Origin: a virus
Lineage: Duplodnaviria; Caudoviricetes
Length of the DNA stretch: 64,000 nt
IMG/VR virus record: IMGVR_UViG_3300020187_001966
Reading direction: 5' to 3' (one strand)
Part shown: positions 5,762 to 58,667 of the stretch, in pieces
How positions within the stretch are numbered: the stretch's first letter is position 1
How the letters are laid out: every line of letters starts with the position of its first letter
Translations under genes and position numbers: made by a program
Notes under the pieces: model-generated
What the model was told of the DNA's origin: nothing
The model's database searches: none
The model's input: only the letters and a program-made list of their open reading frames with translations

Positions 5762-5767
5762 TAGACA

Positions 5768-5908: not shown

Positions 5909-7363
5909 ATGAAATGTAAAATTATCCTTAAAGACGAGGTTAACTGTAAAGTTGAAGGCCTCGACTTACAAACTCGTCGTAAATGTGAACAGAAATTAAA
6001 GTTTATGTTACCATACGCCAGACATGTTCCTGCTTATAAACTAGGACGTTGGGATGGATGTGTTGGTTACTTTACTATGGGCGGTAATACATTTGTTAAT
6101 GCGCTTAGTCATATCATTCCAATACTACAAGAACAACGATACGAATTTGATATAGAAGACAATCGCAATACTTGGGATTTAAAGTTTTCAGAAATAACTG
6201 AAGAACATTTTGCTGACCGAGCATGGCCTGATAAACATCCAGCGGCAGGACAACCTGTTATACTACGTGACTATCAAGTAGGTATTATCAATAAGTTTAT
6301 TAATAATACACAAAGTATTCAAGAGATTGCTACAGGCGCTGGTAAGACATTAATGACAGCGGCTCTTAGTAATCTAATTGAGCCTTATGGACGCAGTATT
6401 GTTATTGTGCCAAACAAAGATTTGGTAACACAGACAGAATTAGATTACATCAACTTAGGTTTAGATGTAGGTGTGTACTTTGGTGACCGCAAAGACTTTG
6501 GTAAGACACACACCATTTGTACATGGCAAAGTTTAAACATCATGGAGAAACGTTTCCGTGATGGAGAACAAGATTGGGGACTGGATGAATTTTCTGAAGG
6601 TCTAGTATGTATTATGGTAGACGAAGTACACCAAGCAAAAGCTGACGTACTTAAAAAACTACTAACAGGTCCGTTCCGTAATGTACCTATCCGTTGGGGG
6701 TTAACTGGTACAATACCCAAAGCAGATTATGAGCGTTTGAGCTTGGAAGTAAGTTTGGGCGAAGTTGTGCATCAGTTAGCTGCAAGTGAACTACAAGACC
6801 AAGGTGTACTTGCGCAGTGTGACGTTAACATACTACAAATGCAAGACAGTGTGAGCTTTGGCAACTATCAGAGTGAACTAACATACTTGACAACTGATAA
6901 AAATCGTTTAGACTACTTAGGAGACCTTATTACTAATATGGCTGAAACAGGTAATACACTTGTATTGGTAGATAGAATTAAAGCAGGCGAAGGACTAATT
7001 GAACGCCTAGGTGAAGATGCTGTGTTTATTAGTGGTAGTATGAAATCAAAAGACAGGAAAGAAGAATATGATGAAGTTAGTGAAGCAAATAATAAAGTTA
7101 TCATCGCAACCTATGGAGTGGCTGCCGTGGGTATTAACATTCCTCGTATTTTTAACTTGGTTCTCTTGGAGCCTGGCAAGTCCTTTGTAAGAGTAATTCA
7201 AAGTATTGGACGTGGAATACGTAAAGCACAAGATAAAGACAGTGTACAAATTTGGGACATTACCAGTAGTGCTAAGTTTAGTAAACGCCACTTAACAGAA
7301 CGTAAAAAGTTCTACAAGGAAGCAAATTATCCGTTTAGGGTAGAGAAAGTAAATTATAAATGA
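5909..7363 (+). CDS. uvsW: SF2 DNA helicase, UvsW-like
   Basis: LRDYQ, ATGAGKT, DEVH, GLTGT, QSIGRGIR motifs; WDG N-terminal motif. Confidence 0.9.
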   Translation: MKCKIILKDEVNCKVEGLDLQTRRKCEQKLKFMLPYARHVPAYKLGRWDGCVGYFTMGGNTFVNALSHIIPILQEQRYEFDIEDNRNTWDLKFSEITEEHFADRAWPDKHPAAGQPVILRDYQVGIINKFINNTQSIQEIATGAGKTLMTAALSNLIEPYGRSIVIVPNKDLVTQTELDYINLGLDVGVYFGDRKDFGKTHTICTWQSLNIMEKRFRDGEQDWGLDEFSEGLVCIMVDEVHQAKADVLKKLLTGPFRNVPIRWGLTGTIPKADYERLSLEVSLGEVVHQLAASELQDQGVLAQCDVNILQMQDSVSFGNYQSELTYLTTDKNRLDYLGDLITNMAETGNTLVLVDRIKAGEGLIERLGEDAVFISGSMKSKDRKEEYDEVSEANNKVIIATYGVAAVGINIPRIFNLVLLEPGKSFVRVIQSIGRGIRKAQDKDSVQIWDITSSAKFSKRHLTERKKFYKEANYPFRVEKVNYK

Positions 7364-13500: not shown

Positions 13501-14878
13501 AGAGTACACAGAAGATTTACAAAAGTTATATCTAGAGTTTTTACTTGCTGACAAAGATTTGTTTGTACGCTGCAATGCGATTACAAACAGCAAATACTTT
13601 GTTCGTAAGTATCAGCCTGTTATGGACTTTATACAAGAACATGTAGATGGCTACGGCGATTTACCAACACATGAACAAATTAAAGCCAAAGTAAGAATTG
13701 AATTTGATGATGTAAGAGCAAAGATTACTGATGACCATAAAAAATGGTTTATGGATGAATACGAAAAGTTTTGTAGACACAAGGCACTTGAGGGTGCTAT
13801 CCTGGAAAGTGCTGATAAACTAGAACGACATGAATACGGAAGTGTTGAGCAACTAATTAAAGATGCTGTTGGTATTGGACTAGCAAAAGACTTTGGGCTT
13901 AACTACTGGGACGATCCAGCAGGACGTATACAAGCAATTAAAGACAATCGTGGACAAAACAGTACTGGATGGGAAAGCCTTGACAAGATACTATATGGTG
14001 GATTTAATCCAGGCGAACTAAACATCTTTGCTGGCGGATCCGGTAGTGGTAAGAGTTTGTTTATGCAAAACATGGCACTCAACTGGAGTTTAGCTGGCAA
14101 GAACGTAGTGTATGTAAGTTTAGAACTTAGTGAAGAACTATGTAGTATGCGTATTGATGCTATGGTTACTAACCAGAGTACTAAAGATGTTATGCGCAAT
14201 GCTGATGACACAGCACTTAAAGTACGTATGGCAAGCAAAAAAGCAGGCGTACTACAAATGATACAAATGCCTAACGGCGCAACTATTAATGATATCAAGG
14301 CATATATTAAAGAATATCAGATACAAAACGACATTAAAATTGATGGATTGTTTGTGGACTATTTGGATCTTATGATGCCTGTTAGCGTTAAAGTTAATCC
14401 AAGCGATCAGTTTATTAAAGACAAGTATGTAAGTGAAGAACTACGTAACTTAGCTATTGAGCTTAACATATTGTTTGTTACAGCGTCTCAGTTGAATCGT
14501 GGTGCTGTTGATGAAGTAGAGTTTGATCACAGTCACATTGCTGGTGGTATTAGTAAGATTAATACAGCAGACAACCTAATTGGTATCTTTAGCTCAAGAG
14601 CAATGCGTGAACGTGGCAGAGTACAGATACAGTTTATGAAAACACGTAGTAGTAGTGGTGTTGGATCTAAACTAGACTTGGGCTATGATATGAATACACT
14701 GCGTATTACAGACTTGGATGAAGATGAACAAGGTGAAGAAGGACAAGTAGCAAGCATCTATCAGAGCTTAAAGAATAAAGCAACTGTTAGCCCTGCTGGT
14801 ACTGAGTCAGCACAGCCTGATAATACCGCAGTGGAAAACGCCGCAAGATTACAAAATTTACTTAAACGAAGGGAATAG
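13493..14878 (+). CDS. Replicative DnaB-like helicase (gp41-like)
   Basis: STGWESLD, GGSGSGKS Walker A, VDYLDL, TASQLNR motifs. Confidence 0.92.
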   Translation: MSEEYTEDLQKLYLEFLLADKDLFVRCNAITNSKYFVRKYQPVMDFIQEHVDGYGDLPTHEQIKAKVRIEFDDVRAKITDDHKKWFMDEYEKFCRHKALEGAILESADKLERHEYGSVEQLIKDAVGIGLAKDFGLNYWDDPAGRIQAIKDNRGQNSTGWESLDKILYGGFNPGELNIFAGGSGSGKSLFMQNMALNWSLAGKNVVYVSLELSEELCSMRIDAMVTNQSTKDVMRNADDTALKVRMASKKAGVLQMIQMPNGATINDIKAYIKEYQIQNDIKIDGLFVDYLDLMMPVSVKVNPSDQFIKDKYVSEELRNLAIELNILFVTASQLNRGAVDEVEFDHSHIAGGISKINTADNLIGIFSSRAMRERGRVQIQFMKTRSSSGVGSKLDLGYDMNTLRITDLDEDEQGEEGQVASIYQSLKNKATVSPAGTESAQPDNTAVENAARLQNLLKRRE

Positions 14879-15068
14879 TTGTTAAAACATTGATGCCGTT
14901 GACCTTATATGTATCTATAATATGATGTACGAACAACGGGCGAAGATATTAGCCTGAATTGTTGCCCGCATCCCATAGCTGTATTAATTCTTATTGCCTA
15001 TGGATCCTAAGTTCACGATCAGGAAATGCAAAGTTGCTATAAGTACTATCCACCAATGTTTTAACAAC
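14878..15068 (-). ncRNA. Candidate 191-nt structured ncRNA
   Basis: 15-bp perfect terminal inverted repeat (extends to 18 bp with G-U), internal helices, 5' end placed just downstream of a minus-strand late promoter. Confidence 0.5.
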
Positions 15069-15070
15069 AA

Positions 15071-15082
15071 TATTTATAAATA
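15071..15082. promoter_or_regulatory. Bidirectional T4-like late promoter
   Basis: Palindrome TATTTATAAATA gives TATAAATA on both strands. Confidence 0.7.
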
Positions 15083-15090
15083 GTATTGAT

Positions 15091-15327
15091 ATGAAACGTA
15101 AAACGAGATCTATTTTAGAAGAAATTAATTCTATGTCACCAAAGCGTGACAGACGGCAACTTGTTGAAGCAAATGCTGAACAAGTAATTGCTACGGCAAT
15201 TAACTTAATTGAATTAATTAATGAGACATTTGATAATGAAACTGCGGCGGATTTGAATAAAAGATTAATTAATTCAATTCGCACCAAGGATCCTCGGAAG
15301 TTTAAAAGAGGGGTATCAAAGCTGTGA
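15091..15327 (+). CDS. Conserved phage hypothetical protein
   Basis: First ORF after late promoter. Confidence 0.7.
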   Translation: MKRKTRSILEEINSMSPKRDRRQLVEANAEQVIATAINLIELINETFDNETAADLNKRLINSIRTKDPRKFKRGVSKL

Positions 15328-16112
15328 AGATTAAAGACATACTAGGCGGAATGAGCAAACGCAAAATCCGTCGTGGAAGCCGCATCAAAAGATTAAGACA
15401 AGAAGATTTACATCTTAGAGAAGGCGGTAATGTATTCCCTGACAGTGTGGGCTTTGATCACAAACTAATACCTGGCATTATGAAATCAATTAATTCAGTA
15501 CTGGCAAAAACTGGTAGTACTGCTATACCAATTGGTAGTGGAGCAACTCCAACACCTGGTAAAGTAAGTGGTGACTTGGATATGATCGTAGATGTAGATC
15601 AGCTAAAACAACATTTTAATATGGAAGACGCTAAAGATGCTGACATCCGTAAAAAGCTACGTCAAGTATTTGACTTAGCAGGGTTTAACACAGGACAAAG
15701 TGGTACTAGTGTACACGTAGAAACACCAATTGGTGATAACACACACCAAGTAGACATTATGGTAGTACCAAATGCTGCTAATGCGGCACAATTCCATACA
15801 CATAATATTCCAAAAGGATCGCCGTTTAAAGGTGTTAACAAGCAACAGATGCTTAGTATTATTGCTAAAGGAAAAGGCATGTTATGGAGTAACTATGTTG
15901 GATTGTTTAAACGTTTACCAAACGGTAAAAAAGATCCAGATGGATTTATTACAAGTGACATTGATGAGATTGCTAAATTATTATTAGGCCCTAATGCCCA
16001 CAAACAAGACATGGGCAGTGTGGAAGCTATTGTAGCAGCATTGGGTAAAGAAGGCGAAGAGCTATTAGCAAATATCAGAGCTAACGATCCAAATTGGAAA
16101 GAACAAAGCTAA
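15324..16112 (+). CDS. Putative Pol-beta-superfamily nucleotidyltransferase
   Basis: IGSG-x8-SGDLDMIVD plus later QVDIM acidic motif. Confidence 0.55.
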   Translation: MKIKDILGGMSKRKIRRGSRIKRLRQEDLHLREGGNVFPDSVGFDHKLIPGIMKSINSVLAKTGSTAIPIGSGATPTPGKVSGDLDMIVDVDQLKQHFNMEDAKDADIRKKLRQVFDLAGFNTGQSGTSVHVETPIGDNTHQVDIMVVPNAANAAQFHTHNIPKGSPFKGVNKQQMLSIIAKGKGMLWSNYVGLFKRLPNGKKDPDGFITSDIDEIAKLLLGPNAHKQDMGSVEAIVAALGKEGEELLANIRANDPNWKEQS

Positions 16113-17185
16113 TGCGAGCAAACCAGTTTTTAACGGAAGCTAAAGTAGGGCGTGAATACCAGCACTTAGAAGATCTAGTATTTGCTGAAGGCAGTGCTGG
16201 TGCTCTTAGAGCGGCAAGTATACTACAACGACTTGGTCAAGATTCAAATGATGTAGCCATTAAATGGGACGGCAATCCTACTATCTATTGGGGCAGAGAA
16301 GCAGACGGAACGTTTGTACTAACTGGTAAAAATGGCTGGGGTAAAAATAAAACTACTAGCAGTGATGAATTAAAATCATTTGTTATGAGTACTGGTAAAG
16401 GCGAAGACTGGAGACAGGACTTTGCTAATAACATGGGTGATGTATTTGACATCATGCAACGTAATACACCAAACGATCTGCGTGGCTTTATATATGGTGA
16501 TTTATTATACTCACCAAGCAAACCATACGTATCAAACAACGACACATATCAATTTGAACCAAATAGTGTTCTATATACTATAGACGCTAACAGTGATCTT
16601 GGTAAAAGAGTTGGCGCAAGTAGTATTGGTATTGCGGCACACAGTATATACGGAGAGTTTGGCGACAAAACTGGCACTCCTATTAAAGATACAAAAAGAA
16701 TTAATACTAATGAAGTTGTAGTTATGGGTCAAACATATGTACCACATCAAGCTAGTGTAGATATTAGCAGTGTAGAAGACATTATAAAAGCAACTAATGC
16801 TAATGCTCAAGCAATTGACGGTTGGTTAACACCTGAACAGGGTCTTAGTAATAAAGGTAATATCATTTATACATATGTAAATCAAATGGTAAAACAAGGT
16901 AAATTAAAGCAATTACAAAGTGGTTTTTTCGACTGGTTAAAAACTAGTAAAGTAAGTGCTGGACAACAAGCAAAACTAATGGCTAGTGACAGTAATGGAT
17001 TAAATGCTATACTAGGATTAGTTGTACAAATTATGACAGTAAAAAATAATATTATTGATCAGCTAGACAATGCTCCAGCTGATGTAACAGCAACTACAAA
17101 AGGTGAAAGTGGTGGCGAAGGATATGTAGTAGGTAGAGATAAAATTAAACTTGTACCAAGACATCGCTGGACGCCAAACTTATAA
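16112..17185 (+). CDS. KxDG ligase-like (ATP-grasp covalent nucleotidyltransferase) protein, DUF6267-like
   Basis: AIKWDGNP, GDLLY, EGYVV...KLV motifs; TAATG-coupled start at 16112. Confidence 0.55.
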   Translation: MRANQFLTEAKVGREYQHLEDLVFAEGSAGALRAASILQRLGQDSNDVAIKWDGNPTIYWGREADGTFVLTGKNGWGKNKTTSSDELKSFVMSTGKGEDWRQDFANNMGDVFDIMQRNTPNDLRGFIYGDLLYSPSKPYVSNNDTYQFEPNSVLYTIDANSDLGKRVGASSIGIAAHSIYGEFGDKTGTPIKDTKRINTNEVVVMGQTYVPHQASVDISSVEDIIKATNANAQAIDGWLTPEQGLSNKGNIIYTYVNQMVKQGKLKQLQSGFFDWLKTSKVSAGQQAKLMASDSNGLNAILGLVVQIMTVKNNIIDQLDNAPADVTATTKGESGGEGYVVGRDKIKLVPRHRWTPNL

Positions 17186-18531: not shown

Positions 18532-18828
18532 ATGTCTATAGCTACAATTGGGACAACCCAGTTAGAGAAACAGAATTTAGAAGCTCACGTTGACCTGTGT
18601 GCTGAGAGGTATCGTGTCTTGGAAGAAAAAGTTAACAATATTGATACCCGCCTTAATAATATTGAAAAAAGTGTGACTTCCATGAGAGAAGAAGGCATCC
18701 GTGAATTCTCTAAAATGCGTGAAGAAATGATTAAAGCAAATGCCACAACAAATAAAATAATGATGGGAACTGGTGGTACAGTTCTTGCTGGTGTACTAAC
18801 ATTACTAGCAACATTATTAATGTCATAA
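18532..18828 (+). CDS. Coiled-coil protein with C-terminal TM helix
   Basis: LEAHVDLCAERY motif, heptads, hydrophobic C terminus; start at ATG 18532. Confidence 0.65.
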   Translation: MSIATIGTTQLEKQNLEAHVDLCAERYRVLEEKVNNIDTRLNNIEKSVTSMREEGIREFSKMREEMIKANATTNKIMMGTGGTVLAGVLTLLATLLMS

Positions 18829-18847
18829 AAATCTAATAAATAACTAT

Positions 18848-19135
18848 ATGAACTTAAACGAACTCACATCAGAAGAACCTGTTGTTGAAGCACAGCTAGT
18901 CTGGGCTCGCAAAGGTAATAAAATTGTTAGAAAATTTCGCTGTAGTGTGGGACAACGAAAAGGCAGAGTTGTGAGCGATCCATCACAATGTGCTAAACCC
19001 ATTGATATGAAGAAAAGAATGACTTTACGTAAAACTAAAGCAAAGATGGGTGCTAGAATAGCTAAAAAAGCACAGCGCACAAAACGTATGAATCCAGCAA
19101 GTAAAGCAATACAAAGGCTAAACAAGGTAAAGTAA
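18848..19135 (+). CDS. Basic late protein (putative head component)
   Basis: Very K/R-rich after an acidic N-terminal segment. Confidence 0.6.
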   Translation: MNLNELTSEEPVVEAQLVWARKGNKIVRKFRCSVGQRKGRVVSDPSQCAKPIDMKKRMTLRKTKAKMGARIAKKAQRTKRMNPASKAIQRLNKVK

Positions 19136-19136
19136 C

Positions 19137-20006
19137 ATGAAGATATTTGATATCATAAATGAGAATAGTAACAGATCTGATATAATTAGAAAAACAGCGG
19201 CTGATCTAAATATACCATTTGCGATAGCTATGGAACTTTTTAATAAAGAAAGTAGAACAGGTCAGTTTGATAAGAATGGTAACACTGTAGTCGGTGACAC
19301 GAATCGTACAAATAATGCATACGGAATGGCTCAAGTTAGATTACCAGCATTAAACGATGTTAATAGATTATATGGAACAAACTATTCATTAGATGATATA
19401 AAAAATGATGCAAATATAAATGCTAAGGTAGGATTATTGTATTTTAAAGCACAAGGTGATCATTATGGTGCAGCCAATTGGGAAGAACAACTTAGAGGAT
19501 ATAACGGTGGTCCTAGCGCAATTAAAGGTGATGTAGCATCAGCAAATAATTATGCACATGATGTTTGGAACAACGCAGTATTTAACCACGAAGGACCAGA
19601 TTCATTAGAGAATTTTAAATATAAAACATTAACAAATGAAGACAAAAAAACATGGATGAAGGACGGCGTTGAAATGTGCAGCAAAGACTGTTGTGGACAA
19701 CCTGTTACTGAATGTGAATGTGGTCCAGAATGTAAACATTGTGACTGTTACAAAGTTAATGAACGTTATAGTTTAGCTCAAGGCAGATCAGCTATGGGTA
19801 AATTTAATAGTGATCAAACAAATATGAATAAACGTATCAACAATAAAATGGCAGATACTAACCGAGAGCTTACAATTAAACAAACACAAATGAATAAAAA
19901 TGCCAATAGAGACGCAAGACGTCTTCCTACAGGTACACCAAATCGTGCGGCGTACGATAATATGCGTCAGGATTTGTTGAGAGGCAGAGGGATACAAAAC
20001 CAATGA
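19137..20006 (+). CDS. Lytic transglycosylase (SLT) domain protein with Cys-rich insert
   Basis: KES, AYGMAQV, GYNGG SLT motifs; CSKDCCGQPVTECECGPECKHCDC. Confidence 0.75.
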   Translation: MKIFDIINENSNRSDIIRKTAADLNIPFAIAMELFNKESRTGQFDKNGNTVVGDTNRTNNAYGMAQVRLPALNDVNRLYGTNYSLDDIKNDANINAKVGLLYFKAQGDHYGAANWEEQLRGYNGGPSAIKGDVASANNYAHDVWNNAVFNHEGPDSLENFKYKTLTNEDKKTWMKDGVEMCSKDCCGQPVTECECGPECKHCDCYKVNERYSLAQGRSAMGKFNSDQTNMNKRINNKMADTNRELTIKQTQMNKNANRDARRLPTGTPNRAAYDNMRQDLLRGRGIQNQ

Positions 20007-38850: not shown

Positions 38851-38910
38851 TGTGGATGCCAATTATGGGTCCACAAAATACATCTTGCTTAATAAAGGAG
38901 ATATAAGATG
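38851..38910 (+). promoter_or_regulatory. ROSE-like RNA thermometer in hsp20 leader
   Basis: ATCTTGCTT pairs with AAGGAGAT with bulged G; upstream hairpin TGTGGA/TCCACA; late promoter CATAAATA 38841. Confidence 0.7.
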
Positions 38911-39342
38911 AATAGATTAACAACGATTGACTTGAATAAACTTACCCCTCACAGTGTTGGCTTAGAACGAATGTTTAACGACATGTTTAAGTACACTGAA
39001 CATCCACAAAATGCTGGGTACCCACCATACAATATTGTACAAGAGAAAAACCGTTTCCAAATTGAGATGGCATTAGCTGGTGTACGTATGGATGATATAG
39101 ATATTGAAGTCGCAGATGGTGAATTAACTATTACACATGACCCGGTTGAAGTTGAACCAAATGAATCAGTACGCTGGGTACATCGTGGAATTGCGCAACG
39201 TAAATTTAAGCGCAGTTTTACACTCGCTGATGATGTAGTGGTACAGGGTGCGAGGATGGAGAACGGCATGCTATATGTAGAGCTTGAACGTATCATTCCA
39301 GAAGAAAAGAAACCCAGAAAAATAGAAATTTCAGCAGTATAA
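38908..39342 (+). CDS. Small heat shock protein Hsp20 (IbpA-like)
   Basis: GYPPYNI, IEMALAG, HRGIAQRKF.RSFTLAD, ENGML. Confidence 0.95.
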   Translation: MNRLTTIDLNKLTPHSVGLERMFNDMFKYTEHPQNAGYPPYNIVQEKNRFQIEMALAGVRMDDIDIEVADGELTITHDPVEVEPNESVRWVHRGIAQRKFKRSFTLADDVVVQGARMENGMLYVELERIIPEEKKPRKIEISAV

Positions 39343-39396
39343 AACTATAACACTAGGGGCGGTTAACGCCGCCCCACATAACAATTAGGTAAAGCA

Positions 39397-39696
39397 ATGA
39401 GTACAGAACTAGCATCTAAGATCGACACATCATGGATTTTCGCACATCCAAAAAAATACAAAGTTATTTTACTAAATGATGATCTAACTCCAATGGATTT
39501 TGTTATAGAAATTCTTATTGGTATTTTTAATAAATCAGAATCTGAAGCTCATCAAATTACACTAGCAGTACACAATACAGGTTCAGGTATTGCGGGTATT
39601 TTTAATTATGAAGTTGCTGAACAGAAATCACATGAAGCTACAACTATTAGTCGTAGTGCTGGGTTTCCATTAACTCTTAAAGTAGAGGAAGAATAA
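39397..39696 (+). CDS. clpS: ATP-dependent Clp protease adaptor ClpS
   Basis: [28 protein letters not shown]. Confidence 0.93.
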
Positions 39697-39697
39697 T

Positions 39698-40846
39698 ATG
39701 AGAATTGAAAATGAAGTACTGTTGGACTACAGCGATGTCTTGATTCGTCCAAAGCGTAGCACATTAGGCTCACGCAAAGAAGTAAACTTAGAACGTGAAT
39801 TTACATTCCGTAATTATAACAAACAAGACATTATGTCTGGAGAATATGATTGGAAAGGTGTTCCAATTATGGCAAGCAACATGGATGGTGTTGGTACATT
39901 TGAAATGGCAGACAAACTTGCTGAAGGCAACATCTTTACATGTCTAGTTAAAACATATAGTGAACAAGATTTAATCAAATACTTTACATCTGATTTACCT
40001 GAGCGTAGTGACTATGTTGCTATGAGTATTGGTATTCAGGATCGTGACTTAAACAAATTTGAAAAAGTTTATACAGTATGTAAAGAAAATTTAAAATACG
40101 TTTGTATTGATGTGGCAAACGGATACAGTCAACGTTTTGTGGAGTTTGTGGGAGAATTTAAATTCCGCTTTCCTAAAGTAGTAATTATTGCTGGTAATGT
40201 GGTTACGGCAGATCAAACGCAAGAGTTAATACTAAATGGAGCAGACATAGTTAAAGTTGGTATTGGACCAGGTAGTGTATGTACCACTCGTATTCAAACT
40301 GGTGTGGGATATCCACAGCTCAGTGCCGTTATTGAGTGCGCTGATGCCGCTCATGGCCTTGGTGGTCATATTATTGCTGACGGTGGGTGTACCTGTCCTG
40401 GCGATATTGCTAAGGCTTTTGCGGGCGGGGCCGACTTTGTAATGCTAGGCGGTATGCTTGCTGGACACGATGAAGGTGGTGGTGACGTAATTACCCGATA
40501 CTATGAAACTAGTGAACTAGAATATCAAGTTGGCGAGCATTTGGCCAATTGTGTACATAAAGTAGAAGAAAAACAATTCATAAAGTTCTACGGAATGAGC
40601 AGTGATGCGGCAAACACTAAACACTTTGGCGGACTTAAAGAGTATCGTTCAAGTGAAGGACGTGAAGTGCTTGTGCCTTATCGTGGTGAAATTGCTAGAA
40701 CTGTGCAAAACATTCTGGGCGGCGTTCGCAGTACATGTACATACGTTGGTGCCAATACACTAAAGCAACTGAGTAAATGTACAACATTTATTCGTGTAAA
40801 CAACCAGTTTAATAAAACGTATGAGTCTACTACCACCAAGTTATAG
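39698..40846 (+). CDS. guaC: GMP reductase
   Basis: [47 protein letters not shown]. Confidence 0.95.
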
Positions 40847-40934: not shown

Positions 40935-41020
40935 AAGTGTGAACACAAAATAGTGTTTACACTTTTTTTATGAAATGACACCCTGAAAAGACGGGGGGTA
41001 TTGCTTTCCTCAAGCATTTT
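40935..41020 (+). ncRNA. Structured leader / candidate sRNA of micro-protein operon
   Basis: 12-bp hairpin + U-run, GC hairpin, and TGCTT-TCCTC-AAGCA hairpin with anti-SD-like loop. Confidence 0.35.
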
Positions 41021-41044: not shown

Positions 41045-41224
41045 ATGTTTAACGACACATTCAACGGTCTTGTAAGTTTACTTGGAAATCCACTTCCAAC
41101 ACGGAAGTTCGAAAAAGAGATGCTTACATACGCAAAAACAGAATACGGAAAAGATTGGCAGTTTGCTTATCAATATATGCTAGATCATTCAGGTTCAGCA
41201 CCTAACATGGGAGTACATCTCTAA
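41045..41224 (+). CDS. Small protein (59 aa), first gene of coupled operon
   Basis: Hand-translated MFNDTFNG...YAKTEYGKDWQFAYQYML...; AAGGA RBS; TAATG coupling to next gene. Confidence 0.75.
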   Translation: MFNDTFNGLVSLLGNPLPTRKFEKEMLTYAKTEYGKDWQFAYQYMLDHSGSAPNMGVHL

Positions 41225-41481
41225 TGGCACATTATGTAATAGAAGCGTCAAGTTGGATTCAAGATGCAATCGAAGGATTCAATGACTTACGTAGAGCAAT
41301 GAAACTACGTGCAGAACGTAAAGCATCATACAAACAAACTTATAAAGAACTTAGCAAGTTAAACGACTATGAACTAAACGACATCGGCATTTGCCGTGGC
41401 GACATTAGAAACATTGCACGTGGTGATAGAACAATCAAACGTGGTATCGAAGTTAACGAAAACTTGAGAGGATCTATATAA
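41224..41481 (+). CDS. DUF1127 (YjiS-like) small protein
   Basis: TYKELSKLNDYELNDIGICRGDI. Confidence 0.88.
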   Translation: MAHYVIEASSWIQDAIEGFNDLRRAMKLRAERKASYKQTYKELSKLNDYELNDIGICRGDIRNIARGDRTIKRGIEVNENLRGSI

Positions 41482-41678
41482 TGACTGTAGCAACAATGAA
41501 ATCAAACACATGGGGAATTACATGTAAAACATGTGCCATTCTTTCAAAAGCAATTGTAGCAACTGGAATGTTTTTATGGGCATTTGGTGAGTCAGCTGGA
41601 AGAGCAAGAGCAGCAAGTGAATTATACCGTCAAGGGTATGTAGAAGAAGCAAGAAGATTAATGACGGAGAATAATTAA
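41481..41678 (+). CDS. Small protein
   Basis: Coupled; [20 protein letters not shown]. Confidence 0.7.
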
Positions 41679-41899
41679 TGACTGGTGATATAGCAACGTT
41701 TGGCGCAATGATTGGCGCAGGGTTAGCAACAATTGGAATGGGCGGAGCAGCCATTGGTGTTGGAATGATTGTAGGTAGTGTACTTAAAGTAATGCCTAAG
41801 AAAAGTGACACAGGCACAATGTTTGTTGGTGTAGCATTTGCGGAAGCATTAGGAATATTTGCATTCTTAGTAGCACTGCTATTAATGTTTGCTGTCTAA
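41678..41899 (+). CDS. atpE: ATP synthase subunit c-like protein with divergent polar loop
   Basis: [18 protein letters not shown] and [25 protein letters not shown]; RNP/RQP loop absent. Confidence 0.85.
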
Positions 41900-42120
41900 T
41901 GGTAGGTGATCAGCACATTGAAATATCAGCACAGGTAGTGCAGAAGTTAGGTTTCTATATGTTTGTAATTATGACTTCACTTATGGTAATATGTATAGCT
42001 TTTGGTTTCTATGCTGTTATTCAAAAATTTAACGAACCAAACTGGAAAGAAGTATGTATCGCAAAAGGCGGTGTGCCAGTACAATTAGAAAAGTCTTACT
42101 TCGACTGCAAAAAGATGTAA
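41899..42120 (+). CDS. Small membrane protein
   Basis: One TM, C-x14-C pair (CIAKGG...FDC). Confidence 0.65.
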   Translation: MVGDQHIEISAQVVQKLGFYMFVIMTSLMVICIAFGFYAVIQKFNEPNWKEVCIAKGGVPVQLEKSYFDCKKM

Positions 42121-42136: not shown

Positions 42137-42271
42137 ATGTTTACAAGATTTATGAAACTAATGGAATACAGAAGTTACTGTATGAGTATCAAGCAACTAC
42201 GAGACATGGGTATGAATGATAAAGCCAATGAAATCTCAGAGTTTAAACATAACATGTATAAAACAAGTTAA
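42137..42271 (+). CDS. Small protein (44 aa)
   Basis: Hand-translated MFTRFMKLMEYRSYCMSIKQLRDMG...; GAGGA RBS. Confidence 0.6.
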   Translation: MFTRFMKLMEYRSYCMSIKQLRDMGMNDKANEISEFKHNMYKTS

Positions 42272-42351: not shown

Positions 42352-42375
42352 AAAGCACCACAAGGTGCTTTTTTC
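42352..42375 (+). terminator. Rho-independent terminator
   Basis: AAAGCACC-ACAA-GGTGCTTT + T-run. Confidence 0.75.
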
Positions 42376-42426: not shown

Positions 42427-42645
42427 ATGCAACATTCTATTGAGGATCTTCTAAGAAGACTTGAAGTAATGAAAGACAAAGCTATTCTGTTACATCGAGT
42501 TCGTAATGAGTTTAGTGAAATATCATATAAAGATTATGACAAAGCAGCTTGTCAAAATATTATAGATGATATACAAGCAATGGCATTGGGCATTGCGAAT
42601 GATAAAGAAGGTACTGATATTATTACTGAGATGGAATATAAATGA
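42427..42645 (+). CDS. Hypothetical protein
   Basis: GGAGG RBS, late promoter upstream. Confidence 0.7.
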   Translation: MQHSIEDLLRRLEVMKDKAILLHRVRNEFSEISYKDYDKAACQNIIDDIQAMALGIANDKEGTDIITEMEYK

Positions 42646-43196
42646 ACTTATCAGGTGATTTTTTAATCAGCATTCCAGCTGTAAATACTGGAACATTTAA
42701 TCGCAGTGTTGTTCTTATGAATAAGCACACTGGCGATGGAGCGTCTGGTTGGATAGTTAATAAACAATTAGATGATAAAATAACACAACGTTTACGCAAA
42801 GGTATGAATCTTACTCGTGACATACCATTATACTTTGGTGGTCCAGTAGACGTAAACAATGCTGTTGTTATACACAGTAATGATTTAAAATTACCTAGTA
42901 CAAGAAAACTTAATGATACACTAAGCATCACAAAAGACAAGAGTATTGTCAACGTAATGAACATTGGACAATTTCCTGAATACTGGAGAGTAATTGTTGG
43001 TAGAAGTTCATGGGGAGCAGGACAACTAGAAAGCGAAATACTTGGCAGCCGTACAAATGGCATTGGTACTTGGATGTCAATAGACTATACTGATCAGTTA
43101 ATGTGGCAAACAATGCCAAGTAATCAGTGGGAACGCAGTATTGAACTAAGTGCCACACAATTGACTAATAATATTTTAAAAATACCAAATATGTAA
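42642..43196 (+). CDS. YqgE/AlgH (DUF179) family protein
   Basis: F.RSVVL, G..GWIVNK, LYFGGPV, GRSSWGAGQLESEI. Confidence 0.88.
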   Translation: MNLSGDFLISIPAVNTGTFNRSVVLMNKHTGDGASGWIVNKQLDDKITQRLRKGMNLTRDIPLYFGGPVDVNNAVVIHSNDLKLPSTRKLNDTLSITKDKSIVNVMNIGQFPEYWRVIVGRSSWGAGQLESEILGSRTNGIGTWMSIDYTDQLMWQTMPSNQWERSIELSATQLTNNILKIPNM

Positions 43197-43661: not shown

Positions 43662-43761
43662 TGGCTCTGGGGGTAGGATTCGAACCTACACGATAAATAT
43701 TTTGCGAACATCTACCACACGATAAACAGTCGTGCGTGTCTACCACTTTCACCACCCCAGA
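43662..43761 (-). tRNA. Non-canonical type II tRNA, anticodon GUU (Asn), 10-bp variable arm
   Basis: Reverse complement: TCTGGGG/CCCCAGA acceptor, G73, CCA; D arm GTG-AAAGTGGTAGA-CAC; CACGA-CTGTTTA-TCGTG; V arm GGTAGATGTT-CGCAA-AATATTTATC; GTAGG-TTCGAAT-CCTAC. Confidence 0.9.
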
Positions 43762-43768: not shown

Positions 43769-44611
43769 TTAGGCGGCTTTGTCTAAACTTTGTAGTTTAT
43801 CCAGTGCGGCAATCATACGTGTCATGCCAATGCCACCACCTACTCTTTGGAAGAAGTCAAACTTGAGGAACTCTTCTAGTTCTGCTTCTACACGTTCTTT
43901 ACCAAACAATTTAAACAGCAGCTCAGCATAGTCTCCGTCTACAATACTGTGGAATGTATCACGCATCATATCAACATCACAACTACGTTCTGCTGATCCA
44001 ATAGTTTCCATACCACCTAAGATAACATCCATCTTCTTAGCAGTATTGCCATCATCGTTACGTGCCATGTTCCAGAAAGGTGATGTTAGTTCTGGGAAGT
44101 CTGTAATTAAACAACTACCAAAGTTCATATCCATTGCTAATTCGTGTTGTGCGTCCATTTCAGTTGATTGACTTACACCAAAGTGTTTTTGCCAGTCGCT
44201 GTATGTTTTTTCTGTTAGTGGGTCAAAGCCCAAGTAATCACATAGTTCAATTTCCATCTTTTTAAGATCATCTACATCGCCCGGCATCTCAAACTCAAAC
44301 ATTGGGAAGATAATGTCGTGTCTGCCTGGTATAGCGTTTGGTTCCTGTCTATAGGACGTTGACACACAAAAAAAGCCCTTACTATCGGGCTTGCTTAATA
44401 ATTCATGTTCTAACCACATCTGGCCTGTTTGCGGTAATGGCCAAACCTGGTCTGCGTAATTGTATGTTGCTACATTGAACGGATCTTCACATGCGGCAAG
44501 TATGCTTAGTCTATTTTGGGTATGTACTTCTAAGAAGCCTTTGTCCAAAAAAAATGACCTTAAAAGGCCAACTGTGTCTGTAAATTTTTGTGGGTTTATG
44601 AGTTGCGTCAT
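43769..44611 (-). CDS. Class IIb aaRS catalytic-core-only protein, AsnRS-like
   Basis: Motif 1 LRSFFLDKGFLEVHT, LPQTGQMWLE, motif 2 YRQE...RH..FPMFEFE, ITDFP...PFW.M, METIGSAER, motif 3 GGGIGMTRM; no N-terminal OB domain. Confidence 0.85.
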   Translation of the reverse strand: MTQLINPQKFTDTVGLLRSFFLDKGFLEVHTQNRLSILAACEDPFNVATYNYADQVWPLPQTGQMWLEHELLSKPDSKGFFCVSTSYRQEPNAIPGRHDIIFPMFEFEMPGDVDDLKKMEIELCDYLGFDPLTEKTYSDWQKHFGVSQSTEMDAQHELAMDMNFGSCLITDFPELTSPFWNMARNDDGNTAKKMDVILGGMETIGSAERSCDVDMMRDTFHSIVDGDYAELLFKLFGKERVEAELEEFLKFDFFQRVGGGIGMTRMIAALDKLQSLDKAA

Positions 44612-44712
44612 CTTTTTTTCCTTTTCTGAAATTCAGCCTAAAAAAAATTAGCTCAAAAAAATTTGAGTGTGTTTTTTCTATCCAGTCTATTTAGTCTTTT
44701 CTATAATAAGGC

Positions 44713-44743
44713 TTGACATCCTCTTGTGTTTAGTATATAAATA
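44713..44743 (+). promoter_or_regulatory. Composite sigma70 / late promoter of tmRNA
   Basis: TTGACA-N17-TATAAA overlapping TATAAATA. Confidence 0.7.
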
Positions 44744-44747
44744 GACT

Positions 44748-45090
44748 GTAACGTTGAAGTGATTTGACGACTATACTGGACCCGGGGGCGGTACCCGGCG
44801 ACTCCACCATAAACACATTAGGTTTGAAATATAACCTCTCTTTCCCGAGATGATAACTCGATATAGAGGACCTAGAAATAGGGTAAAGAATAAGAGTGCT
44901 AGTGTGTTTTTGATGGGGTCGAAATAGGATCGACAGGTAGGATAGATGAGTGGAGTTACCGGGATATAAGCGCCGTTACCGCGAATAAACTTTCTAAATG
45001 CAAACGCAAATAGAGCGCCAGAAATGGCTTTAGCTGCCTAATTAGGTAAGTGGGGGTTTGTAACGCACCTAGCAACAGAAGCGTTACACT
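44748..45090 (+). ncRNA. ssrA: Two-piece (circularly permuted) tmRNA, tag ANANRAPEMALAA
   Basis: Acceptor piece ends CCGGGGGCGGTACCCGGCGACTCCACCA (44809); coding piece starts GGGGTCGAAATAGGATCGAC (44915); G3-U70 pair; tag 45000-45041. Confidence 0.92.
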
Positions 45091-45144: not shown

Positions 45145-46224
45145 ATGAAATTATTAAAACTATTTTCCGCAACATTATTAATGTTGGGGTCTTTAGCTGT
45201 GTCAGCACAAGCAGATGCACCTAAGGATAACATCACGGTCGGATTTATTTACGTCGGACCAACTGGTGACCACGGATGGACATACCGTCACGATATTGGT
45301 CGTCAGCAAGTAGAAGAAGCATACGGCGACAGAGTAACAACACGATTTGTTGAAAGTGTAGCAGAAGGTGCTGACGCTGAACGTGTAATGACACAAATGG
45401 CACTACAGGGCGCAGACATTATTTTTGCGACATCATTTGGATATATGGATCCAATAATGAACGTAGCAAAGAAGTTTCCAAACGTAAAGTTTGAACATGC
45501 TACAGGTTATAAATCATCTGACAACGTTGCTAACTATGGTTTGAAACTATACCAAGCAAGACACGTACAAGGTGTTGTAGCAGGTATGATGACAAAAACA
45601 AACAAAATTTGTTATATTGCTTCATTCCCAATTCCAGAAGTTATGCGTGAGATTAACACGTTCTTCTTGGGTGCACGTAAGTACAATCCAGATGTAGAAC
45701 TATCAATTGCGTGGGTTTACACATGGTATGATCCAGGTAAAGAAAAAGATGCGGCAACAGCATTGATTGACCAAGGTTGTGACATTGTAGCACAGCATAC
45801 TGACTCACCTGCTCCACTACAATCAGCAGAACAAGCAGGCGTACTTGGATTTGGACAAGCAAGTGATCAAATGAAGTTTGCTCCTAACGCACAATTGACA
45901 GCAACTATTGACAATTGGGGTCCTTACTATATTAAGAAAGTAGGACAAGTACTAGACGGTACATGGGAAACAGGCGATTACTTTGGACACATGAACGAAG
46001 ACGCTGTACAAATGGCACCGTTTGCTAACATGCCAGCTGACGTACAAGCAGAAGCACAGCGTGTAAAAGATGCTATTAGCGCAGGTGAGTTATTTGGATT
46101 TACAGGTCCAATTAACAAGCAAGACGGAACAGTGTTCCTGAAAGAAGGCGAAGTAGCAACTAGACAGCAACTAGACACTATGATGTTCTATGTCGAAGGC
46201 ATTACATCAAAGGTACCTGGTTAA
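45145..46224 (+). CDS. BMP-family ABC substrate-binding protein (purine nucleoside type)
   Basis: Signal peptide, GFIYVGP.GDHGWTY.HD.GR, IFATSFGY, WYDP.KE..AA..LID.G. Confidence 0.93.
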   Translation: MKLLKLFSATLLMLGSLAVSAQADAPKDNITVGFIYVGPTGDHGWTYRHDIGRQQVEEAYGDRVTTRFVESVAEGADAERVMTQMALQGADIIFATSFGYMDPIMNVAKKFPNVKFEHATGYKSSDNVANYGLKLYQARHVQGVVAGMMTKTNKICYIASFPIPEVMREINTFFLGARKYNPDVELSIAWVYTWYDPGKEKDAATALIDQGCDIVAQHTDSPAPLQSAEQAGVLGFGQASDQMKFAPNAQLTATIDNWGPYYIKKVGQVLDGTWETGDYFGHMNEDAVQMAPFANMPADVQAEAQRVKDAISAGELFGFTGPINKQDGTVFLKEGEVATRQQLDTMMFYVEGITSKVPG

Positions 46225-52530: not shown

Positions 52531-53298
52531 ATGCAGAAAAAATTATTAAGTAGTGCCATAATGGCAATAGTGTTTACAACATTAGCATCGTTATCAGTAA
52601 TGGCTAATGAAATATATATAACACAAATTGGGGATAGTCTAGATTTAGATATCACTCAAGACGGACAAAACAACGAATTTGGAGACAGCACTACAGACGC
52701 TGGGCTCTATGGCGATAATATGGTGTTTAGTATAACACAAACTGGTGATACAAACACTATTGACGCAATTATTGCTGGTGACAGTTATACAGGTACCTGG
52801 GTGTTTACTGGAAATAGTAACAATGTTGACCTATTATGTGACAGCACAGCAACAATTGGTGGTGGCAATTGTGATAATGTAACATTAAATATTACTACAA
52901 CAGGTGATGACAACAACTATGACTTTAAGATTGGTGAAACTACTGATGGCGGTGATGCCACTGTTAACTTTACAATTGATGGTGATGACAACCTGATACA
53001 AATGGACTTGGATGGAACTGATGCTAATGTTACTGTAGAAATTGACAACAGCGCATCAACAGCAAGTGGATCAACAATTACAAGCGCAACTGATACTAAC
53101 CTAAGTACTAATTCTCCAGGTAACATTATTGATTTAAATATTGATGGTAATGGTGATACTTTAGGACACACTGTAACATTAGATATAACAGGTGGTGGTA
53201 GTGTATATACTATTACACAAAGTGGTATCTACGATAACCTAGTAGATATAACTTCAACTGGGGACGGTAACACAGTTGATATTACACAATCCGATTAA
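52531..53298 (+). CDS. Curlin-repeat-like secreted protein
   Basis: Signal peptide, NEIYITQIGD, repeated Q-x-G-x-x-N units. Confidence 0.8.
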   Translation: MQKKLLSSAIMAIVFTTLASLSVMANEIYITQIGDSLDLDITQDGQNNEFGDSTTDAGLYGDNMVFSITQTGDTNTIDAIIAGDSYTGTWVFTGNSNNVDLLCDSTATIGGGNCDNVTLNITTTGDDNNYDFKIGETTDGGDATVNFTIDGDDNLIQMDLDGTDANVTVEIDNSASTASGSTITSATDTNLSTNSPGNIIDLNIDGNGDTLGHTVTLDITGGGSVYTITQSGIYDNLVDITSTGDGNTVDITQSD

Positions 53299-54406
53299 AC
53301 TTATATGTATAATATTTGTTGCTCTAGCATACGTAAGTATAGCTAGGGCAACTCCTATTGGAGCGGTTGCTGAATCTTCTGGCACAAGTACAATTAAACG
53401 TGATAAAGAAGCATACACTGGCGAAGTAGGTCTTGGCTTACAAATGAACGATAATATTGCTACTGGTAAAGGTAAATTGCGTTTAGACTTTGTAGACGAT
53501 ACTAGAGTAGATGTTACTGAAAATAGTCGTATGACTATTGATGAGTTTATATACGATCCAGCTAGTGGAACAGGTGCTCTTAGTATGAAAGCAACACTAG
53601 GCGCAGTACGTTATGCTAGTGGACAAATAGCAAAGAATTCAAGACAACGAGTAAACATAAGAACGCCAAGTGCTAAAGTTACAGTGCGTGGTACAGACTT
53701 TATGATGATTGTAGATGAGATAGGCGGCAGTATGATAACACTATTGCCCAGTTGTGATGAAAGTGGATTATGTGTAACTGGTGAGATTAGTGTTGAGAGC
53801 GATGTGGGAATGGTTATTATGAATCAAGCATTCCAAACTACTATAGTTTCACACAGTGGTGCTGTTCCAAAGCCAGGAGTTGTACTAGACTTACCAGAAA
53901 ATATGCTTACAGCAATGTTAATTGTACGTAAAGTATCACCTTACACAGAAGAGATAATAAAACAAAAACCACCTACTGATATATTAGACATTGACTTTTT
54001 AGAGTTTGACGAACTAGACAGTGATCCATTAGTTGATGGTATTAAAAATATTTGGGTAACTGATTTAGATAACACAACTTACCTAAATTCAGAGTTTATA
54101 GATCAATTGGAAAAACAACTTGCTGAAATACTATCAAAATGGTTTGATAGTCTAGGAACACAAAATGTAGAGTTTTTTCAGGATAAGTTTTTTGGATTAG
54201 ATCCAGATACAAATATATTTTATGATGAGGAATATCCTTATTTTGTAGTAAGTCGCAAAGAAGGAGATCAACATTTCTTTCAATTAAATTTAAGCCAAAG
54301 TCACAGCTACAATGTAGACTTTGTTCAAGGAGGGTTTTATGAATACGGTTTTAAAGTGGGTGTTGGTTCCTCTAACAGTATTGTTATCAATCAAAACAAC
54401 TACTAG
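53276..54406 (+). CDS. FecR-domain protein
   Basis: Signal/TM, TGKG...F.DDT, GAVRYASG, IRTP.A...VRGTDF. Confidence 0.85.
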   Translation: MILHNPIKLICIIFVALAYVSIARATPIGAVAESSGTSTIKRDKEAYTGEVGLGLQMNDNIATGKGKLRLDFVDDTRVDVTENSRMTIDEFIYDPASGTGALSMKATLGAVRYASGQIAKNSRQRVNIRTPSAKVTVRGTDFMMIVDEIGGSMITLLPSCDESGLCVTGEISVESDVGMVIMNQAFQTTIVSHSGAVPKPGVVLDLPENMLTAMLIVRKVSPYTEEIIKQKPPTDILDIDFLEFDELDSDPLVDGIKNIWVTDLDNTTYLNSEFIDQLEKQLAEILSKWFDSLGTQNVEFFQDKFFGLDPDTNIFYDEEYPYFVVSRKEGDQHFFQLNLSQSHSYNVDFVQGGFYEYGFKVGVGSSNSIVINQNNY

Positions 54407-56624: not shown

Positions 56625-58667
56625 ATGCGTAAGATATTATTCTCTCCAATATGGAGTGTGCTTGTACTACTACTTCTTACTTGGGTGTATAGTAGTAACC
56701 CAGTATTTCTAGATAGTTTAAGGTTGAGATACTTTGACCAACTAATAGTAAATCAAGAGCCAATTGAAAATAACATATACACTGTTAACATAGACGAAGC
56801 AAGTTTAGAAGAAAAAGGACAATGGCCCTGGCCACGTGGAGACTATAGTGAGTTAATTATAGACTTATATGACCGTGGTGCTGGCTTAGTTGTGTTTAAT
56901 GTACTAATGGCTGAAACTGATCGAGCAGGAGAGGATCAAGATTTAGCATTAACAATGCAACAGTTACCAGTTATCCTAAACATGCTGGGCGCAGATGAGA
57001 ATAAAAACGAAGCAATTAATCCTGGTGCTACTATTGTTAATAGTGACTTTATGTACCTTATACCCAGCCGTGAAGGTGTTATAGCAAACGTACCAGACAT
57101 AGAATTTTCATCAGTTGGCAGTGGCATCGTAGATACATTCCCAGAAGCTGATGGTGTAACAAGACGTATGCCAATGGTTATAGAAAGCCAAGGCACACTT
57201 TATCCAAGTGTTACAATGGAAGTATTACGAGTTATTGCTGGAGATCCTAGTTTTCAGATTAAGTTAAATGAATTTGGTGTTGACAAACTACGCATACCAC
57301 AGTTTGGTATTATACAAACAGATGGACTTGGGCGTGTTTGGATTGACTGGAGTCAAAAGAATAAAAGTTATAGCACAACAAACTTACCAGACGACTTTGA
57401 TGGCGGCATAGTATTTGTTGGCCCAACAGCGGCAGGTGTTTCACAGCCAGTAGCAACAGCGGCGGGCAGTATATACCCACACGAAATACATGCCACTATA
57501 CTTGGCACAGTGTTTAACAAAAGTAATATTGAACGACCTGCTTGGGCTTTTGATGCTGAAATGTTAGGCTTCTTATTAGTAGGACTTTTTGTTATTGTAC
57601 TAGCACGTTGGACTTATGCTGGCATTATAGTATTTGTAGTCGCAGTAGGTGGTTCAATATTTTATAGCATATATAGTTTTAATAACTATAACTATTTGAT
57701 TGATGGCGCTACATCTAGTGCCTTTTTAATACTAGTGGGCATGACTAGGTATATAGTTAAATTTGTAGATGAATTCCTACAAAAACAAGAAATTAAGAAA
57801 CAGTTTGGCGGATACGCATCACCTACAGTTGTTAAACTACTACAAGAAAATCCAGCACTCATTAAAGATGGTGTAAAGAAAGAAGTTAGTATCGTGTTTA
57901 GTGACTTGCGTGGCTTTACTCCACTAGGTGAGAGTTTTGGTGACGATGTAAAAGGCCTAACTAAAATAATGAATGGCTACATGGATAGTATTACACAGCC
58001 TGTATTAGACAGTGATGGAATGATTATTAAGTATATAGGCGATGCTAGTATGCACATACACAATGCGCCTATAGATGATCGTCACCATCCAAGAACCGCA
58101 GTACAATGTGGATTAGATATGTTAGCGGCAGTGGATAAATTTAATGAAGAAGTTATTATTCCACAAGGTAGACCAGCAGTAGGCATGGGCGCAGGTATCA
58201 ATACAGGACTTGGTTATATTGGTGAGATGGGATCAACAGCTAGACACAGTTATGATGTTTTGGGAGACGCAGTAAGTACTGCCGCACGTATTGAATCAAA
58301 ATGTAAAGAGTACGGATGTTTACTACTAGTAGGCGATGCTACATACCAAACAACTAAGTCAGACTTCTTTTACTTAAAGATAGATGACTTAGCAGTTAAA
58401 GGCAAGAGTGTTGGTGTTGGTATATGGACAGTATTAGATCAGAAGCGTCCAGCTTGGCGTAAAGCACAAAAGAAACACCAAGATATGTATGAAGACTATC
58501 TGGCGCAAAGATTTGATGACGCAATAGACAAGTGTAAGATGTTACATGATCACTTTGACGGACAAATGGCTGGCTACTATGATATGTGGATTGAGCGTTG
58601 TGAATTCCAAAAGACACAAGACTTACCTAAAGATTGGAATGGCGTGTTTTTTGCCCAAACCAAGTAA
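56625..58667 (+). CDS. CHASE2-domain class III adenylate/guanylate cyclase
   Basis: GQWPWPR CHASE2 motif, three TMs, FSDLRGFT, IKYIGDA, GIGI-like GAGINTG, YDVLGDAV..AARIES. Confidence 0.93.
   Translation: MRKILFSPIWSVLVLLLLTWVYSSNPVFLDSLRLRYFDQLIVNQEPIENNIYTVNIDEASLEEKGQWPWPRGDYSELIIDLYDRGAGLVVFNVLMAETDRAGEDQDLALTMQQLPVILNMLGADENKNEAINPGATIVNSDFMYLIPSREGVIANVPDIEFSSVGSGIVDTFPEADGVTRRMPMVIESQGTLYPSVTMEVLRVIAGDPSFQIKLNEFGVDKLRIPQFGIIQTDGLGRVWIDWSQKNKSYSTTNLPDDFDGGIVFVGPTAAGVSQPVATAAGSIYPHEIHATILGTVFNKSNIERPAWAFDAEMLGFLLVGLFVIVLARWTYAGIIVFVVAVGGSIFYSIYSFNNYNYLIDGATSSAFLILVGMTRYIVKFVDEFLQKQEIKKQFGGYASPTVVKLLQENPALIKDGVKKEVSIVFSDLRGFTPLGESFGDDVKGLTKIMNGYMDSITQPVLDSDGMIIKYIGDASMHIHNAPIDDRHHPRTAVQCGLDMLAAVDKFNEEVIIPQGRPAVGMGAGINTGLGYIGEMGSTARHSYDVLGDAVSTAARIESKCKEYGCLLLVGDATYQTTKSDFFYLKIDDLAVKGKSVGVGIWTVLDQKRPAWRKAQKKHQDMYEDYLAQRFDDAIDKCKMLHDHFDGQMAGYYDMWIERCEFQKTQDLPKDWNGVFFAQTK

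Follow-up and report, generated by a model that had tools for sequence, protein, structure and literature searches.

A phage-encoded variant of the ATP synthase c subunit with a rewritten F1-docking loop, in a conserved micro-protein operon of marine phages

The psbA/D1 gene of cyanophages is a phage auxiliary gene for a core bioenergetic membrane subunit. In the E. coli ATP synthase, the c subunit mutants cR41 and cQ42 lose coupling, and an Fo sector without F1 is a passive proton conductor. Small proteins that attend rotary enzymes include Voa1, ATP6AP1/Ac45, and ATP6AP2, which are single-pass helices inside V-type c-rings, and the c-ring assembly factor AtpI/UncI. ATP synthase output is changed by other small proteins, among them the alphaproteobacterial zeta subunit and Salmonella MgtC. 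Among F- and N-type c subunits the RQP(D) loop is a conserved feature, and it makes contact with the epsilon and gamma subunits (PMC5376962; for this contact that paper cites Hermolin 1999), and Gly-to-Ala changes can alter c-ring stoichiometry (PMC5376962). An F1-free c-ring has been proposed as a leak channel in mitochondria (PMC9433415), and cyanobacterial AtpTheta is named as a small-protein regulator of ATP synthase in PMC12648545. Our literature search found no publication on a phage-encoded c subunit or on a virus carrying an ATP synthase subunit.

The gene described here lies in a window of 64,000 nucleotides, which is the whole stretch of DNA analyzed and covers the greater part of an IMG/VR virus record of 65,270 bases with a GC content of 37%. 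The record encodes a phage-type primase, a DnaB helicase, a virion-protein match (PHROG), ribonucleotide reductase, and tRNAs, and its CheckV completeness of 19% corresponds to a genome of ~340 kb; the window is part of a jumbo phage of ~330 kb. A 328-kb metagenomic scaffold (L150) shares synteny with the window around the c gene, in the order HSP20, ClpS, GMP reductase, DUF1127, small ORF, c, small ORF, AlgH-like protein, and aaRS-like protein. Near its cassette (5315..6089, 13730..16794, and 18731..19147), L150 also encodes IF3, ribosomal protein S21, a xanthine/uracil permease, a phosphoribosyltransferase, PEP carboxykinase, and a plastocyanin-like copper protein.

The c subunit variant is encoded at 41678..41899 on the plus strand, from an ATG preceded by GGAG, as a protein of 73 aa with a Gly-rich helix 1, Glu56, and MPKKSD in the loop where the host has RNP. 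It matches Pfam ATP-synt_C (PF00137) over profile positions 1–60 of 60 with 44.4 bits (cut-off 24; E 2e-11). Among PDB chains it is matched best by the c subunit of Paracoccus denitrificans (5dn6; E 7e-17). The AF2 model is a helical hairpin (helices 2–38 and 45–72; pLDDT 80), and a Foldseek search of the PDB with this model returned c subunits as all of its top matches, led by 5dn6_J (TM 0.75; rmsd 2.1 A; 53% identity). The ion-binding carboxylate, Glu56, lies mid helix 2 within AFAEALG, and the helix 1 glycines (G13, G15, G20, G22, G23, G27, G29, and G33) follow the host pattern. By profile, fold, carboxylate, and glycine motif, the ORF belongs to the F-type ATP synthase c subunit family. 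A search of PHROGs returned no family match for it, and against the alphaproteobacterial AtpE equivalog (NCBIfam NF005733/PRK07558) it scores 61.1 bits, under the cut-off of 85.

In the window's 65-kb record and four relatives, one of them CheckV-complete at 221,447 bases, there is no above-cut-off match to ATP-synt_A, ATP-synt_ab, or ATP-synt_B, so the c gene is an orphan. The protein departs from AtpE in its loop, in its equivalog score, and in lacking an atp operon around it, and for these reasons an annotation as a functional AtpE would be misplaced. A preliminary description, made from the letters of the window, had pointed to this ORF, to its AtpE-like helices and the Glu in FAEAL, to their likeness to alphaproteobacterial AtpE, and to the want of any other atp gene in the window. 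The ORF coordinates, the Pfam match, and Glu56 confirm the first two points; Rhodobacterales AtpE as the closest cellular source supports the third; and the last extends from the window to the 65-kb record and the complete 221-kb relative.

What sets the phage protein apart is the polar loop, which in the window c subunit spans residues 33–47 and has the sequence given in the preliminary description. R[NQ]P is present in none of 105 non-redundant phage-type variants and in all 79 of the nearest cellular copies; every one of the 79 readable cellular homologs carries A[LF]RNP, and all are 78 aa long but one (80 aa). The preliminary description had called the loop free of R(Q/N)P and about five residues shorter than that of Rhodobacter. 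Alignment with homologs bears out both statements, the first for 105 of 105 variants and the second as a length of 73 aa against 78 aa for Rhodobacterales AtpE, the HMMER alignment with 5dn6 placing a 5-residue gap precisely at LRNPS of 5dn6. Its further claim that the F1-coupling loop is lacking stands only for the Arg and Asn, which are gone throughout; the loop is rewritten and not removed, and 87 of 105 variants retain the Pro of RNP where it aligns with that of the host.

The replacement loops are diverse. There are 76 distinct versions, of 16–21 residues (host 21), some of them without any Pro; on average they hold 2.7 Lys plus Arg (host 1.0) and 1.1 Asp plus Glu (host 0.07). Two basic residues follow the Pro, as MPKK in the window c subunit and MPHR in the 78-aa forms. 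Three loop types can be told apart among the relatives: 78-aa forms in which MPHRS replaces LRNPS, 74–79-aa forms with varied loops, many without Pro, and 73–76-aa MPKK forms, to which the window c subunit belongs. When a canonical host c subunit was used as query against 2.9 million viral contigs, the same contigs were returned, with a best identity of 73% and no RNP-type copy. Conversely, the best 80 matches among 185,579 species genomes (all ≤66% identical) include no non-RNP copy.

Outside the loop, the phage and host consensus sequences differ by a single fixed change, I to V at residue 50. Glu56, F49, G51, A53, F54, A57, G59, and F63 are retained in 105 of 105 variants. In the packing motif, G27 is replaced by Ala in 33 of 105 phage copies as against 0 of 70 host copies, and G23 by Leu in 16 phage copies; the window c subunit keeps Gly at both positions. 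Across 44 distinct phage c gene sequences (Nei-Gojobori, pooled pairs), the overall dN/dS is 0.09–0.11, with helix 2 at 0.03 and the new loop at 0.09 within the short-loop group. Synonymous sites are close to saturation, and the reading frame is intact in 67 loci. These values, with the frame, lead us to reject a pseudogene or chance ORF; random decay with loss of the Glu, the outcome that the preliminary description had set against its own reading, is excluded by a dN/dS of ~0.09, and Glu56 is present in all 105 copies. Given this dN/dS, a new loop that is itself constrained, and the one-position difference elsewhere, the gene is neither decaying nor a plain copy: one surface has been replaced and then maintained. 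In a maximum-likelihood tree, which is built from few columns and is unrooted, the variants and the RNP copies split on one branch (SH-aLRT 96), also when the loop columns are removed. This topology fits a scenario of one capture from the host and one loss of RNP.

Relatives of the c gene occur on about 68 IMG/VR contigs from ~60 metagenomes and in many further assemblies, including Tara samples. The carriers span at least three unrelated kinds of phage: jumbo phages like that of the window; T4-like phages with gp45 and gp44 clamp proteins, RegA, UvsW, and PolB (L153 and L154); and podo-like genomes of ~50–60 kb with PolA, a T7-type primase-helicase, terminase, and portal (L152 and L156–L159). 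A tblastn search of the phage c subunit against 50,697 GenBank phage records gave no match, which leaves no cultured carrier, and a megablast search with the surrounding 8 kb matched only the aaRS-like gene, at 73% to Prochlorococcus phage P-SSM7. All of the best 80 matches among the 185,579 species genomes belong to Rhodobacterales, none above 66% identity, which points to a Rhodobacterales host as the source, the host being assigned here by sequence likeness. The window also contains a permuted two-piece alphaproteobacterial tmRNA (44688..45090, plus strand; Rfam alpha_tmRNA, 127 bits; ARAGORN tag ANANRAPEMALAA), which fits an alphaproteobacterial host.

The c gene sits in an operon of very small genes on the plus strand, in the order o59, DUF1127, o65, c, o73, o44. 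At 40935..40964 a terminator-like hairpin, with a stem of 12 bp and then a run of T, ends the GMP-reductase unit that lies upstream and forms the 5′ boundary. The first small ORF, o59 (41045..41224), is conserved in some relatives only. It is followed by an 85-aa DUF1127 (YjiS-like) protein (41224..41481; Pfam PF06568, 43.6 bits), by the phage-only small protein o65 (41481..41678), whose stop overlaps the c start as TAATG, and, beyond c, by the phage-only single-pass membrane protein o73 (41899..42120), whose start overlaps the c stop in the same way. The small ORF o44 (42137..42271), conserved in closer relatives, precedes a hairpin resembling an intrinsic terminator (42352..42371) at the 3′ end of the operon. 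With TAATG overlaps at its gene junctions, the operon is predicted to be translationally coupled. The order DUF1127, o65, c, o73 is retained in nearly all of the 68 viral loci, across which c is 82–100% identical and its neighbors 32–97%. The c gene is one part of a conserved micro-protein module that the preliminary description had overlooked, and this alters what needs explaining.

Contigs from marine RNA libraries of several studies contain the operon stretch. In three of four runs (three studies) they start past the first hairpin, at 40953 in run X3 and 41018 in run X6, and end before ~42346, with 42375–42508 uncovered. Contig ends at the terminators are a weak hint of a transcript, as these are assembled contigs and RNA libraries can hold DNA. 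One further contig in run X6 joins 41675 to 42133, skipping exactly c and o73, and may derive from a related phage without this pair; as a single contig, at depth 2 and with 26 letters on its short side, it was discounted as a deletion variant.

The most constant companion of c is o73, which accompanies it in every myovirus lineage and in four of the five podo-like loci. When a profile made without any podo-like sequence, from the myovirus members alone, was compared with the 681 ORFs of these five loci, the c-adjacent ORF ranked first in four of them (E 6e-25, 2e-7, 7e-5, and 2e-3). The protein is strongly hydrophobic (hydropathy 2.5), with near-invariant residues G18, F22, G36, F37, A39, and V40 in its transmembrane motif and two Cys in the C-terminal part of most members; its AF2 model has a confident helix at residues 3–44 and a low-confidence C-terminal part. 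Charges on the flanks point weakly to a C-terminus in the cytoplasm, whereas a periplasmic location would suit the two conserved Cys. The family comprises 11 representatives among 1.84 billion proteins, with no cellular branch. A complex prediction of four c copies with o73 scored 0.00, with pLDDT of about 50, and speaks neither for nor against a contact. At the podo-like locus L158 (5280..7209), c lies between a ClpP protease gene and a gene for an SbmA/BacA-like membrane transporter, and neither DUF1127 nor o73 is matched at this c locus.

The second phage-only protein, o65, has a weakly hydrophobic N-terminal segment (hydropathy 1.1–1.6) followed by an invariant G..RAA..L...G..EE....M motif, which is probably on the cytoplasmic side. 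It is found in the jumbo and T4-like (myovirus) lineages, all with MP[KH][KR]-type loops, and is absent from the podo-like loci. In an atlas search its clusters were 100% viral, and o65 and o73 matched only unnamed viral clusters. Kinship of o65 with DUF1127 or o73 was ruled out (hhalign probability ≤1.3%). We also considered co-evolution of the loop with its partners and did not retain it: loop type tracks the o65 and o73 subfamilies, but both track phage lineage.

The C-terminal tail of the DUF1127 protein is conserved as N.NL[RK]G[WFS]V. Its gene is next to c and is the sole member of its family in each of five phage records, including the complete 221-kb genome; among the podo-like loci it adjoins c in three of five, on either side and in differing gene order. 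DUF1127 proteins are peripheral inner-membrane proteins that bind PhoR, SsrA, and PspA (PMC11707872, PMC12501420, PMC12648545), approaching inner-membrane proteins from the cytoplasmic side (PMC11707872, PMC12501420), and one member binds RNA (PMC8034643).

Upstream of the operon, genes for HSP20, ClpS, and a GMP-reductase/IMPDH-family protein lie in a row at 38908..40846 (plus strand); HSP20 directly precedes DUF1127 in the T4-like carriers L153 and L154 and lies ~0.8 kb upstream in many short-loop loci. On the other side, the window encodes an AlgH-like (DUF179) protein at 42642..43196 (plus strand) and, on the minus strand, a 100-nt tRNA-like gene at 43662..43761 (ARAGORN Asp with the odd anticodon ATC; Rfam tRNA, 47 bits). 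The latter is directly downstream of a 280-aa class II aaRS-like (AsnA/AspRS-core) gene at 43769..44611 (minus strand), which shares 73% DNA identity with the "tRNA ligase" of Prochlorococcus phage P-SSM7. Farther along are a Bmp/PnrA-type nucleoside-binding lipoprotein of an ABC transporter (45145..46224, plus strand), an ORF with a FecR domain (53276..54406), and a 680-aa protein in which a CHASE2 sensor is fused to an adenylate/guanylate cyclase domain (56625..58667, plus strand). The neighbors of c in all contexts are HSP20, ClpS, GMP reductase, DUF1127, the AlgH-like protein, and replication genes, with no lysis enzyme adjacent, which makes a holin or pinholin role unlikely. Lysis timing, one of the purposes that had been suggested at the outset, finds little favor for a gene that in every phage type is surrounded by replication, nucleotide, and stress genes and has no lysis gene next to it.

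In the reading we prefer, which we hold tentatively and at somewhat below an even chance, the phage c subunit builds or joins c-rings that work with host subunit a but do not dock F1, and thereby uncouples or down-regulates the host ATP synthase. Co-assembly with host c or a ring of its own, with uncoupling or re-gearing of proton flux, had already been proposed in the preliminary description and is kept here as a hypothesis. A Rhodobacterales AtpE would have been captured once, and only its cytoplasmic loop, which docks the F1 stalk (gamma/epsilon), rewritten. The variant would be co-produced with o73 from the coupled operon, in myoviruses together with o65 and DUF1127, and would enter the host inner membrane. 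Because its helices are almost identical to those of the host, it may assemble into c-rings, either mixed with host c or of phage c alone, and because Glu56 and the a-facing helix 2 are kept, such rings could still run against host subunit a. They would be unable to bind gamma and epsilon normally, so that Fo would be uncoupled from F1, the outcome being a lower share of coupled ATP synthase, a controlled proton leak, or both. The phage would in this way impose a change in the use of the host proton-motive force in early or middle infection. Within this scheme o73 is probably a ring-bound assembly factor or plug, and o65 and DUF1127 may sit on the crown formed by the rewritten loops. As to what the phage would gain, our guesses are faster respiration, exclusion of later phages, or redirection of the proton-motive force. 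Two observations temper the uncoupling model: the loops are richer in Lys and Arg and most keep a Pro, so an altered but working F1 contact may exist, and ring self-packing alone could account for the conservation of the helices.

Such a working contact is what would be expected if the phage protein were a spare part or booster that supplements host c, so that ATP synthesis goes on during infection (compare cyanophage psbA), with a loop that still couples F1 and perhaps a changed ring size. A host-derived, abundant gene under strong purifying selection suits this idea, as do the Pro and basic residues of most loops and the Ala at position 27 that is frequent in phage copies and missing from host ones, given that Gly-to-Ala changes can alter ring stoichiometry (PMC5376962). 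However, RNP occurs in no phage copy and in every cellular copy, and this, together with the variety of the loops, argues against a simple spare part; 76 distinct loops of varying length, some without Pro, are unexpected for a surface that has to fit a fixed host gamma and epsilon. The score of 61 bits against an equivalog cut-off of 85 and the presence of a dedicated phage-only partner, for which a spare part has no need, also weigh against it, and we consider it quite unlikely. Lower still we place an assembly poison or decoy, in which c and o73 would titrate subunit a, YidC or AtpI-type insertion and assembly factors, or nascent host c, leaving new ATP synthase unbuilt and forming no functional ring of their own. 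Near-identity of the helices to host c, the orphan state of the gene, and a loop that is the sole part freed from host-type constraint are all compatible with titration, but a pure decoy does not need the proton-binding Glu that is kept in 105 of 105 copies, and a block of assembly would be slow relative to the infection cycle. Least credible, to the point of being negligible, is that the ORF is a decaying or functionless hitch-hiker or arose by chance. Its small size and the missing PHROG family are all that speak for this, against a Pfam E value of 2e-11, the low dN/dS with synonymous sites near saturation, the frame preserved in 67 loci, and occurrence in at least three phage types.

Another alternative does without any host ATP synthase subunit: a stand-alone phage membrane complex in which a c-ring and o73, with o65 and DUF1127 on the loop side, form a gated ion or leak channel or a scaffold used for depolarization, superinfection exclusion, or signaling. 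In its favor, the c–o73 pair travels through unrelated phage types, DUF1127 is linked to c in three gene orders, and o65, with its invariant acidic EE pair, occurs solely with MP[KH][KR]-type loops. An F1-free c-ring has been reported as an F1-gated channel (PMC9433415), and DUF1127 proteins are known to bind inner-membrane proteins on the cytoplasmic side (PMC11707872, PMC12501420). Nevertheless, Glu56 and the entire a-facing helix 2 are host-identical, the latter with a dN/dS of 0.03, and are not obviously needed by a pore that works independently of subunit a; their retention argues for continued work with subunit a and against a pure pore as well as a decoy. The c-ring channel idea is also disputed, and the o73 helix has no charged residue for a proton path. 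On balance we judge the stand-alone complex unlikely, while giving it real weight. A more specific proposal, a shade less probable in our view, is that c and o73 (with o65 and DUF1127 in myoviruses) make up a phage-built, F1-less rotor whose basic crown (PKK or PHR) is capped by phage proteins, for example through the EE of o65, in place of gamma and epsilon, and which would act as a regulated proton conductor or channel. If this were true, no earlier virus would be known to have turned the ATP synthase rotor into a separate device.

An abundant marine phage group, with carriers in ~60 metagenomes and in RNA libraries of several studies, keeps an ATP synthase subunit under strong selection with only the coupling surface changed. 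If the phage c subunit uncouples or re-gears the host enzyme, as in the preferred reading, it would give phages a new means of commandeering the energy metabolism of roseobacters, a group of great importance to the carbon and sulfur cycles of the ocean. The 76 natural loop variants on an otherwise constant c subunit are a ready tool for studies of rotor–F1 binding, and the constant single-helix partner o73 points to an unknown protein that recognizes c-rings.

The closest known relative of the phage protein is the AtpE of Rhodobacterales, as in the c12 ring of Paracoccus denitrificans (PDB 5DN6), with which it shares the Pfam family, the two-helix hairpin, and a first helix rich in Gly; the second helix, proton-binding Glu included, is nearly the same in both. 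AtpE has the RNP loop, whereas the phage loop is replaced and five residues shorter; unlike AtpE, the phage c subunit is phage-encoded, lies outside any atp operon, falls under the equivalog cut-off, and is paired with phage-only small proteins. As a host-derived membrane subunit of an energy complex that is widespread in marine phages and under purifying selection, it resembles the psbA/D1-type genes of cyanophages, but these are faithful copies that replace the host part, whereas the phage c subunit has its coupling surface rewritten in every copy. The ring proposed here would share with the mitochondrial F1-free c-ring (PMC9433415) the lack of the F1 stalk as a cap; the mitochondrial ring is eukaryotic, arises by dissociation, and is disputed, while the phage c subunit differs by a change in sequence. 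AtpTheta, zeta, and MgtC are, like the phage c subunit as we propose it, small proteins that change ATP synthase output, but they bind the enzyme from outside, and the phage protein is an altered copy of a structural subunit itself. Voa1, ATP6AP1/Ac45, and ATP6AP2, and also AtpI/UncI, are earlier examples of membrane proteins devoted to a rotor ring, a role that o73 may share; o73 has no sequence likeness to the former, which belong to V-type rings, or to the latter, which is a four-helix protein.
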